Assembly (NCBI GenBank): GCA_964016885.1 | Contig: OZ024741.1 | Span: forward strand, 6,076,001 to 6,140,000 | Direction: 5' to 3' | Source: Eledone cirrhosa | Taxonomy: Eukaryota | Length of the DNA: 64,000 nt | Shown: positions 37,617 through 48,740 of the stretch, piece by piece | Layout of the letters: each line of letters opens with the position of its first letter | How positions within the stretch are numbered: position 1 is the stretch's first letter | Translations under genes and position numbers: made by a program | Notes under the pieces: model-generated | Databases searched by the model: none | Told to the model about the DNA's origin: nothing | What the model saw: only the letters and a program-made list of their open reading frames with translations

Positions 37617-37756
37617 TTTTACGTCCGCTTTCCCCCTGCTTGCAAGGGTGGGACGGGTCCTATTCAGCACAACATCTCTCCACTTGTCACCTCGTCCGTG
37701 AGCTTCAGCAATCTGAGGTCTGCTCTCACCACCTCCGCCCATGTTTTTCGTGGTCT
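37617..37756 (-). mobile_element. 5'-truncated RTE-clade LINE 3' end (degenerate)
   Basis: The minus strand translates RPRKTWAEVVRADLRLLKLTDEVT and then, after a frameshift, WRDVVLNRTRPTLASRGK. This matches the RPRKTW..DL..L C-terminal motif of RTE ORF2. It is followed by GCAAGCAGGGGGAAAGCGGACGTAAAA, which resembles RTE tail sequence. Confidence 0.7.
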
Positions 37757-37795
37757 TATATATATATATATATATATATAAGACCACGAAAAACA
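37742..37795. repeat. Perfect 54-bp palindrome centred on (TA)12
   Basis: TGTTTTTCGTGGTCT-(TA)12-AGACCACGAAAAACA; the 15-bp arms are exact reverse complements. Confidence 0.95.
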
Positions 37796-40720: not shown

Positions 40721-40907
40721 AACTAGTTCGACCATTATTCAACAGAGTACTCGATACTTGAGGTAGTGGAGTGACTATATTAGAGTCGGGACCCGACGAC
40801 TGAGCCCTTAACTGGTTAGACCAGAAACTGGTTAGACCATTACTCAACAGAGTAGTCGATACGTGGGATAGTAGAGTATGGGTATATGAAAGAGTGGGGT
40901 CCCGACT
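40721..40907. repeat. Diverged ~105-bp direct duplication
   Basis: GACCATTATTCAACAGAGTACTCGATAC...GAGTCGGGACCCGAC versus GACCATTACTCAACAGAGTAGTCGATAC...GAGTGGGGTCCCGAC, with an extra AACTGGTTAGACCA copy at the junction. Confidence 0.8.
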
Positions 40908-47070: not shown

Positions 47071-47440
47071 TCCTACACACGAACACTCCAATAAAAAATT
47101 CAAAATGTTTAGTTGTATTATAATCTCCAAGTAAATTGTTCAACTAAATTACAGAATTCCAGCCATCATCTCTTGTTTTACGTCTTTCCTGTCAACGATT
47201 GTTTCTCTTACTTCAGCAAATGGCGTCAATTTAATACCTCACAACTGACGGTTTAAATTTAAACTACATAGAGAGAGATAGTAAATGGTTTCCCTCCTAT
47301 ATATATATATATTACATATATATATATACATGTAGAAGTTATATTTAATTTGTTGGGATTCCAACAAACTTAAAAGTTTCTAACTATATATATATATATA
47401 TATTATAAGTTTATAACTATATATATATATATATATATAT

Positions 47441-47555
47441 ATAGGAACAAGTATGACCCCGACGGCAGAGCTCAAGCCGTTTCGACGGCTAATTTGTCCA
47501 GAATTAGCCGTCGAAACGGCTTGAGCTCTGCCGTCGGGGTCATACTTGTTCCTAT
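47441..47555. repeat. Perfect hairpin, 54-bp arms and 7-nt loop; probable inactivated hammerhead ribozyme remnant
   Basis: 47441-47494 is the exact reverse complement of 47502-47555, with loop TGTCCAG. The right half reads GAAA-CGGC-TTGAGCTCT-GCCG-TC, like a hammerhead 3' half. The hairpin itself is directly observed, and the ribozyme origin is inferred. Confidence 0.85.
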
Positions 47556-47631
47556 TACCCACTCTACTACCCTAAGTATTGAGTACTTTGGTGCGTTATG
47601 GTCCATCTGGTTCCTTACCACATTTCCTTCG

Positions 47632-47776
47632 TTATATATATATATAACATATATATTATATATATAACATATATATTATATATATAACATATAACATATA
47701 TATTATATATATAACATATTATATATATAACATATATAACATATATATTATATATATAACATATATATTATATATA

Positions 47777-47846
<70 letters not shown>
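47632..47846. repeat. (TA)n / TATATAACATA microsatellite
   Basis: AT-only tract with interspersed AC. Confidence 0.95.
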
Positions 47847-47849
<3 letters not shown>

Positions 47850-47952
47850 ACATATAAATGAAGTAATTCCGTCGGAAAAGTCCAGGAAAAAAGAGTGCTC
47901 TATGTAGGTAACAGAGCTTAATAGTTATGTAATAAACAACATAAGGCAATTA

Positions 47953-48012
47953 TTCCATTTACCAGTGGTTTCTTAAAAGCAAAAAATTTTGCTTTCAATC
48001 ATCAGAATGAAA
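47953..48012 (-). ncRNA. Type I hammerhead ribozyme motif (copy 1)
   Basis: Reverse complement of the 48515-48574 motif, within the left arm. Confidence 0.75.
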
Positions 48013-48514
48013 AAATCCTGGTCTGTTTATTGAATTTGGATTTTAAAAACAAAAATGCAATCTATATGAAAGTGAGGCTGGAGAAAGAAGAAGGAAAGGA
48101 AAAATAAAATAAAAACACACATGCAAACAGACACACACACACACAAATGCATACATACACACATATATATATATGTGTATATAATATACATACACACACA
48201 CATATACACATATATATGTGTATATAAATACACACATACACATACACATACATACATACATACGCACATAAATATCAACACATCCATACATACATATATA
48301 CAACCACACATATATACAACCACACATACATATACACATATATATGTGTATATGTGTGTGTATGTATATATATATATATATATTATGTGTGTGTGTGTGT
48401 TTGCATGTGTGTTTTTATTTTATTTTTCCTTTCCTTCTTCTTTCTCCAGCCTCACTTTCATATAGATTGCATTTTTGTTTTTAAAATCCAAATTCAATAA
48501 ACAGACCAGGATTT

Positions 48515-48574
48515 TTTCATTCTGATGATTGAAAGCAAAATTTTTTGCTTTTAAGAAACCACTGGTAAATGGAA
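48515..48574 (+). ncRNA. Type I hammerhead ribozyme motif (copy 2)
   Basis: Stem I UUUCAUU / core CUGAUGA (48522-48528) / stem II UUGAAAGCAAAA..UUUUGCUUUUAA / GAAA (48555-48558) / minimal stem III CCA-C-UGG / GUA cleavage triplet (48565-48567) / stem I' AAUGGAA. Confidence 0.78.
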
Positions 48575-48740
48575 TAATTGCCTTATGTTGTTTATTACAT
48601 AACTATATTACATATATATATATATATATATATGTGTGTATATATATATATTTATTAAAATAACAGATTAAAGTTTAAGCAAAGAATCGCTGCTTTCACC
48701 CTTAACGGGAGCTTTTATTATTATTATTATTATTATTTAC

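Follow-up and report, generated by a model that had tools for sequence, protein, structure and literature searches.

A perfect hairpin in the Eledone cirrhosa genome is a two-armed stub of a probable Hydra-clade Penelope-like element

The hairpin at 47441-47555 and its surroundings

The window analyzed here, a stretch of 64,000 nt from Eledone cirrhosa (contig OZ024741.1, positions 6,076,001 to 6,140,000), carries at 47441-47555 a perfect hairpin, the 54-nt arms of which (47441-47494 and 47502-47555) are 100% complementary and separated by a 7-nt gap. Its predicted fold is extreme (-111.3 kcal/mol, z = -22.6), and none of 200 shuffled sequences was as stable (0/200). An initial annotation had described the hairpin as a hammerhead ribozyme whose catalytic core was overwritten by fold-back copying, an interpretation that is partly supported by our analysis. 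The parts it named are in place: GAAA at 47513-47516, CGGC/GCCG at 47517-47520 and 47530-47533 enclosing GAGCTC, GTC at 47533-47535 and GGGGTCATAC, with (TA)n on both sides of the segment 47441-47631. Numbering the element from the G of GAAAC (position 0, window position 47513), the locus is composed as follows.

47418-47443, no strand: left flank, (TA)n target microsatellite; its last bases are common to the arm end
47441-47494, minus strand: inverted short-end arm, element +42 to -11
47495, no strand: single non-templated junction base at position -18 (the putative RNA start); native A, here T
47496-47631, plus strand: forward tail-end arm, element -17 to +118; 94% identical to the full-length unit at locus L161
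47505-47512, plus strand: 3' strand of the natural hammerhead stem II (TAGCCGTC), as defined from 34 intact copies
47513-47535, plus strand: GAAA, stem III (CGGC/GCCG with GAGCTC loop) and GUC triplet; cut predicted after 47535
47536-47540, plus strand: 3' strand of stem I (GGGGT)
47556-47631, plus strand: 76-nt tail, on one arm only, between two putative reverse transcriptase (RT) start sites
47632-47846, no strand: right flank, (TA)n / TATAACA microsatellite

The proposal that the right arm derives from a type I hammerhead proved correct: it holds the 3' half of the ribozyme, with the cleavage triplet at 47533-47535. The hairpin itself is half a ribozyme, in which a motif scan found the 5' core and the 5' strands of stems I and II absent; the same scan detected no complete hammerhead at the hairpin, the only ones in the window being the two copies of the neighbouring repeat. 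An Rfam search of the whole window returned sub-threshold miRNA and snoRNA matches on microsatellites only, and none at 47441-47555. The 11-bp central helix GACGGCTAATT/AATTAGCCGTC, previously taken for stem II, proved to be something else, as its left strand belongs to the inverted arm; the natural stem II, seen in the 34 intact copies, is formed by GNTCGGCTA paired with TAGCCGTC around a loop of about 37-39 nt. In the window's copy, the putative RNA start is missed by 1 nt on the arm that stops at -17 and by 7 nt on the arm that stops at -11, and neither arm carries an extra G. The same junction type occurs in another subfamily (locus L012; L numbers are our locus identifiers).

Several other repeats were observed in the window. 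At 47856-48141 and 48386-48606 lies a neighbouring inverted repeat, perfect over 221 bp, which belongs to a different family, as the annotation had stated; it contains a hammerhead with the canonical CTGATGA core, at 48515-48574 on the plus strand and at 47953-48012 on the minus strand. Its left arm has a 65-nt extension, indicating that the pairing of one short and one tail-bearing arm described below holds there too, and relatives of it were found at L026/L027, L090, L107, L133 and L235. A third abundant repeat associated with (TA)n, probably a further Penelope-like element (PLE) stub family, has its end at 48648-48705 (84-100% identity at about 30 fetched loci, often as inverted pairs). A short repeat lies between (TA)n tracts at 47326-47385 (83-91% matches, about 10 loci), and a perfect palindrome with 27-bp arms and no spacer at 37742-37795. 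Two decayed fragments at 40721-40906 are, judging from their 74-81% likeness to the leader and tail of the family studied here, an older relative of it.

The family, its full-length copy and its hammerhead

In the 3.0-Gb genome of the species, 66,511 sites match a 23-mer of the right arm with at most one mismatch, many of them minus/plus pairs 30-90 bases apart, and the exact 51-mer of the window's subfamily occurs 513 times. Long copies extend upstream into an open reading frame for a reverse transcriptase with a C-terminal GIY-YIG domain. The 3,118-bp unit at L161 has an open frame of 719 aa (ATG at +213), in which we recognized RWR at residue 37, DKT at 117, YRDD at 348, CNCPDRSIC (CxCX5C) at 572, IYQ..YIG at 592, CNLCSEE (CxxC-EE) at 670 and LNKKDELVTACKH (LN..E..CxH) at 688; it is without CX2-5CxxC, and no CCHH was seen by eye. 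Pfam matched neither RT nor GIY-YIG on this ORF and a PDB sequence search with it gave no match, while a sister copy gave a sub-threshold Pfam GIY-YIG match (E = 0.069).

Hydra-clade PLEs are described, in section 11 of Craig et al. (2021, PMC8557442), as having a single RT-endonuclease (EN) ORF with DKT, a CxCX5C linker and CxxC and CxH around the E/N, and as inserting into (TA)n. The family studied here has a single ORF with RT followed by GIY-YIG, as well as DKT, CxCX5C and CxxC/CxH, and (TA)n is the target at the insertion sites of its members, the window's copy included. It carries RWR where the clade has RWK, a conservative variant, and its 3,118-bp unit is slightly above the soft limit of generally less than 3 kb. 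Motifs and target match the description of this clade, and 47441-47631 is described here as a two-armed head-to-head stub of a probable Hydra-clade PLE.

Short perfect inverted repeats in TA targets, some with recurrent junctions (L012), could also be produced by a MITE or a fold-back DNA element that multiplies as a whole, the case that the annotation had named as contradicting its own reading, or by an assembly artefact. A MITE is unlikely because the 76-nt tail occurs on one arm only, leaving the ends asymmetric, because the junctions are heterogeneous, and because the arms of long copies run into the RT-EN ORF. The family and both of its loose ends, represented in the window by 47555 and 47629, are moreover present in independent short-read contigs (four sequencing runs), none of which spans the 47441-47631 copy. 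We consider both of these origins extremely unlikely.

The 34 intact copies share a type I fold, in the order ACCCC / core / GNTCGGCTA / loop of 37-39 nt / TAGCCGTC / GAAAC-GGC..GCC-GTC / GGGGT, with a stable stem III of 5 bp counting A-U. Complete ribozymes thus do occur in the family, as had been predicted, but the arrangement expected for them (GACCCC-CTGANGA-GACGGCTAATT) was not found, the copies reading ACCCC-(T/C)TGANAA-GNTCGGCTA instead. The canonical CTGANGA core anticipated in intact copies accounts for only 12 of 6,421 core matches genome-wide, and 11 of these 12 are CTGAGGA, best read as point changes within CTGAGAA copies; CTGANAA accounts for 1,589. Among the first 100 core matches listed, 73 were TTGANAA, with all four bases at N7, and 24 were CTGANAA. 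About three quarters of the cores combine a paired 3-8 position (U3-A8) with GAAA and NUH, and U3-A8 is among the covariants described for PLE hammerheads in the cited part of PMC4209133.

The core of the window's subfamily is CTGAGAA, with a mismatched C3.A8, in 7/7 full copies bearing its tag (one reads CTGAGGA). The hammerhead fold lay within about 1 kcal of the minimum free energy in three of four U3-A8 copies and within 1.5 in the fourth, as compared with 2.6-4.1 above it in three C3.A8 copies and 5.9 in one U3.G8 copy; Rfam gave no hammerhead match on the one intact ribozyme copy submitted. Subfamilies with C3.A8, in which the ribozyme is likely crippled, have expanded widely (1,589 cores), from which cleavage seems dispensable for spreading. 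Among variants of the fold, L043 and L047, of one U3-A8 subfamily, have AATAAA in loop II just upstream of the putative RNA start, a possible polyadenylation signal. A divergent member on the minus strand of L046 (1500-1620) has an ATGATAA core and GAGAC replacing GAAAC, and its stem II is lengthened by altered yet paired bases (CAGCTAGAT/ATCTAGCTG).

Arm pairs, arm ends and the origin of the stubs

The architecture of the family was examined in the first 100 exact matches listed (C1, 0-24.2 Mb), which collapse to 83 elements. An adjacent inverted arm was present in 65 of the 83, so that the left arm of the window's hairpin is a routine inverted second arm rather than the product of a rare overwriting of the core; no partner was found in 18 elements, four of them too long to parse. 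The 65 pairs comprised 58 in which a short arm (ending at +42) faces a tail arm (ending near +118), one tail/tail, one short/short and five unclassified pairs, and the short/tail rule therefore holds in 58/60 classifiable cases (p = 3e-15), the tail being the 76-nt difference between the two arm ends. The short arm went further 5' in 34/58, a soft count in which many calls hang on 1-3 nt of microhomology. An inverted pLTR with a one-sided tail is a known form of PLE insertion (sections of PMC8557442 and PMC3846280), and for a Poseidon PLE in vitro, the cited results of PMC11167929 describe extension of both target strands, starting at two sites within the RNA between which the tail lies. Subfamily tags were concordant between the arms in 38, 38 and 36 of 38 pairs (shuffled means 22, 19 and 10; pairs pooled from fetched loci and biased toward the subfamilies searched), which points to one source transcript or locus for both arms; one RNA, two RNAs of one locus or later homogenisation would produce such concordance alike.

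Fold-back or self-priming at stem II of a single cDNA or an antisense template, replacing the ribozyme core, would likewise yield perfect arms with subfamily variants common to both, and self-priming of an antisense template has been published for PLE head-to-head repeats (Arkhipova et al. 2013, in the relevant part of PMC3846280). In the window's copy the short arm (-11) is nested within the tail arm (-17), leaving a fold-back origin compatible with that single copy taken by itself. Across the family, however, outer ends fall at two fixed sites in 58/60 pairs, and in 8/58 short/tail pairs the tail arm ends inside the tail while the short arm goes on, a structure that a single strand folding back on itself cannot make.

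The inner ends of the arms are also confined. Of 100 tail-anchored arms drawn as an independent sample, 53 have their start at -11 to -23, none at -24 to -36, 10 at -37 or further upstream and 37 downstream of -11. Rather than sharing one sharp end, the arms scatter over -11 to -23, with microhomology leaving the calls ambiguous by 1-3 nt; the wall that they form has the sequence (T/C)-AGTCC, the hyphen marking its position, inside hammerhead loop II. Genome-wide, 25,357 arms reach -18 and 9,873 continue in native sequence to -22, and the base before -18 is a non-native G in 4,854 cases and a non-native A in 800. Manual reading of 30 such Gs showed that 15 are not derivable from the partner arm and that the other 15 could be. 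In 171 elements of the form GGACTC-n(0-3)-GAGTCC, the extra G is found on both arms, each complete to -18, as compared with 5 elements having A on both; such arms, full to the wall with no template-derived single-stranded loop between them, argue against fold-back. Single A or T spacers predominate in the listed junctions of this cap-cap type and in those of the cut-cut type at +23 described below.

Downstream of the wall, no match to a downstream promoter element was seen by eye at +28 to +33. The initiator consensus is TCAGTY, which the wall sequence resembles. For PLEs, an Inr-like motif in the pLTRs and an internal promoter have been reported (portions of PMC3846280 and PMC2377424), and in L1 an extra G is the accepted mark of capped full-length insertions (as treated in the cited part of PMC11702581). 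From the extra G and the wall we infer that a capped RNA likely starts at A(-18), inside loop II, and since the arms stop at AGTCC, the template likely lacked the 5' half of the ribozyme from the outset.

A wall of this kind could alternatively arise from two primings on a long transcript if RT stalled at a structure in loop II, with G as its preferred untemplated base. Some copies are indeed predicted to form a weak hairpin that closes near -21 to -15, and the ends do spread over about 12 nt. This hairpin is AU-rich and varies by subfamily, however, whereas the wall is constant at AGTCC; an extra G-run base is found in about 4/55 listed +23 elements (hand count), whereas G dominates at -18. 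In the junctions of L027, L067, L086, L106 and L216, the terminal 10-20 nt are re-copied, as if RT had realigned at the RNA end, and in the first four this fits a template running out. We regard a stall as improbable. Still less probable is splicing or trans-splicing at the wall, with TTTAG or TTCAG before TCCAG as the 3' acceptor and G-AG as the end of an upstream exon or leader. Almost every intact copy does have, at -19 to -17, a YAG following a U-rich tract (2/34 read TTTAT), and a 5' UTR intron near the hammerhead is reported for Penelope (passages of PMC4209133 and PMC2377424); yet no conserved exon sequence precedes the G, the base before it in the 15 partner-independent cases is T in 6, C in 4, A in 3 and G in 2 (hand count), and cap-cap junctions contain 0-3 variable bases.

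A second class of ends lies at +23, the base that directly follows GUC. Among the 21,617 arms of the two subfamilies tagged as U3-A8, 43 elements (79 strand matches) have this position as the end of both arms, with one A or T between them; the controls, the same two-arm pattern at +21 and at +24, gave 0 matches each. Of the +23 stubs examined, 15/16 are short/tail. Tags were tallied for the 55 elements contained in the first 100 rows of a listing of 527, and 15 of these elements, having a possible microhomology spacer, were set aside; U3-A8 tags were carried by 34/40 of the remaining +23 elements as compared with 26/80 in a control listing (Fisher p = 7e-8, hand tallies, with the link from tag to core based on 34 intact copies and one tag mixed), and the 15 set aside show a like enrichment. 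The window's C3.A8 subfamily (3,026 arms) gave one +23 match against about 6 expected (p = 0.017), and this lone cut-cut match (L354) has an atypical tail/tail structure. A test for arms starting with A returned 207 matches at +23, of which about 22/30 sampled were true truncations, as compared with 80 at +20, of which 12/30 were not point mutants; in the sample of tail arms, 7/100 lay at +22 to +24, two of them artefacts, forming a weak peak.

The simplest reading of these ends would be in vivo cleavage by the U3-A8 ribozyme with copying of the 3' product, the window's subfamily having lost ribozyme activity yet still spread. In the cited experiments of Frangieh et al. (PMC11167929), no RNA-seq reads ended at the cut site, and cleavage was dispensable in vitro. 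An antisense template predicts neither the extra G at a sense Inr-like site nor ends at a sense GUC, and fold-back is largely refuted for the family as a whole; we judge it quite improbable. At L270 the +23 position is where the short arm ends and also where, following a jump to ORF sequence, the tail arm begins; at L270 (1163-1604) and L276 (1342-1604), in coordinates oriented to the match, a +23 tail arm is preceded by sense element 348-673 or 35-194. These joins suggest template jumps from a cleaved 5' end, or joined RNA ends.

The reading that we favour, with a probability of roughly 0.8, is that the tiny stub arose when the RT-endonuclease cut both strands of (TA)n and two cDNAs, primed on one sense RNA, ran off its 5' end and were joined. 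The family, its ORF, the short/tail pairing, the wall, the extra G and the +23 class are observations, and the steps, read from the DNA junctions, would be these. Transcription from the pLTR promoter would begin at A(-18) within loop II, and the capped RNA would then carry only the GAAA/stem III/GUC half of the hammerhead at its 5' end. The RT start sites at +42 and +118, near which the enzyme would bind, would lie 60 and 136 nt from this 5' end, and priming on the 5'-proximal copy would give two very short cDNAs running off the RNA end. RT would often copy the cap as an extra G and add an untemplated A, after which trimming and joining of the cDNA ends would produce the perfect inverted repeat. 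A minority of templates would be the 3' product of hammerhead cleavage, giving stubs that end at +23. The ribozyme core would thus have been never copied, rather than overwritten, and the stub would be a dead end.

A further, tentative possibility, which we hold to be considerably less likely than not to be correct, is that the transcription start splits the hammerhead, leaving the substrate half on the capped leader and the U3-A8 core half in the 3' UTR, 3 kb off. The two RNA ends might then assemble an open-stem-II ribozyme, which would cut off the 41-nt leader and hold the ends for template jumping or circularisation, and the stubs would be a fossil record of both RNA 5' ends and of two-strand priming. 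The AATAAA in loop II of one subfamily bears on this possibility, but cleavage within a tandem read-through RNA would account for the +23 class equally well. About 10% of arms pass -18 without a scar and lie outside the favoured model, and the long copies need a read-through, multimeric or circular template; among 30 loci with the G, no long copy combined native upstream sequence with the extra G, so that an end-to-end jump is so far unsupported. If true, the split-hammerhead arrangement would settle the origin of PLE inverted repeats and show that PLE hammerheads cut in vivo.

Significance and comparison with known systems

The hairpin alone is ordinary retroelement debris, and the family is a base-resolution record of tens of thousands of insertions, whose junctions point to a capped sense template primed twice and to a second template starting at the ribozyme cut, enriched in paired-core subfamilies. 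The genome is seeded with tens of thousands of perfect inverted repeats of 50-60 bp, possible sources of dsRNA or cruciforms. The role of the hammerhead in PLEs is described as unclear in the section cited from PMC8557442, and the cited part of the 2024 in vitro study (PMC11167929) does not treat the origin of the inverted repeats; an intact ORF and natural variants with active and inactive cores make these two questions directly testable. The stub architecture and the clade were known. In the literature searched, with most subscription papers outside it, we met no PLE insertions described with a cap G, on one arm or both, or with run-off at the cut site, tied to core pairing or otherwise, and no start inside the ribozyme.

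Inverted insertions of EN+ PLEs, as presented in the cited sections of Craig et al. (2021, PMC8557442) and Arkhipova et al. (2013, PMC3846280), have the same inverted, 5'-truncated head-to-head copy, one-sided tail and microsatellite target. Their tail measures 30-40 nt as compared with 76 nt here, and, unlike in those descriptions, about nine in ten arms here stop at a single site within the ribozyme and show a cap-like G. To explain the inverted copies, those sections invoke EN-mediated resolution or antisense self-priming, as opposed to the two primings on a capped sense RNA proposed here. Within the Hydra clade, elements such as Hydra-1_Obim (Craig et al. 2021, clade section of PMC8557442) share the ORF plan, the (TA)n target and a sense hammerhead near the 3' end; the family studied here differs in RWR for RWK, its 3.1-kb unit, a non-canonical core (U3-A8 or C3.A8) and a long loop II, and by eye the hammerhead listed for Hydra-1_Obim is of another sequence.

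The Poseidon PLE PAc (Frangieh et al. 2024, results cited from PMC11167929) resembles the proposed mechanism in cutting and extension on both strands, two internal RT starts, an AT-rich target and dispensable cleavage. Its RT start sites lie in the ORF rather than, as here, in the 5' UTR, and that part of the study leaves inverted copies unexplained and reports no cut-site reads, whereas insertions here end exactly at the cut site. The type I U3-A8 hammerheads of PLEs (Cervera and De la Pena 2014, description in PMC4209133) have the same pLTR topology, U3-A8, free N7, extra bases where stem II begins and loop 3 palindrome, as compared with which the hammerhead here has a stable stem III and a loop II of 37-39 nt that would hold the transcription start. 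In L1 twin priming, as outlined in the cited part of PMC11702581, the second target strand likewise primes on the RNA and an extra G marks complete copies; the inverted parts of L1 are adjacent and barely overlap, whereas here both cDNAs would copy the same stretch, yielding a palindrome.
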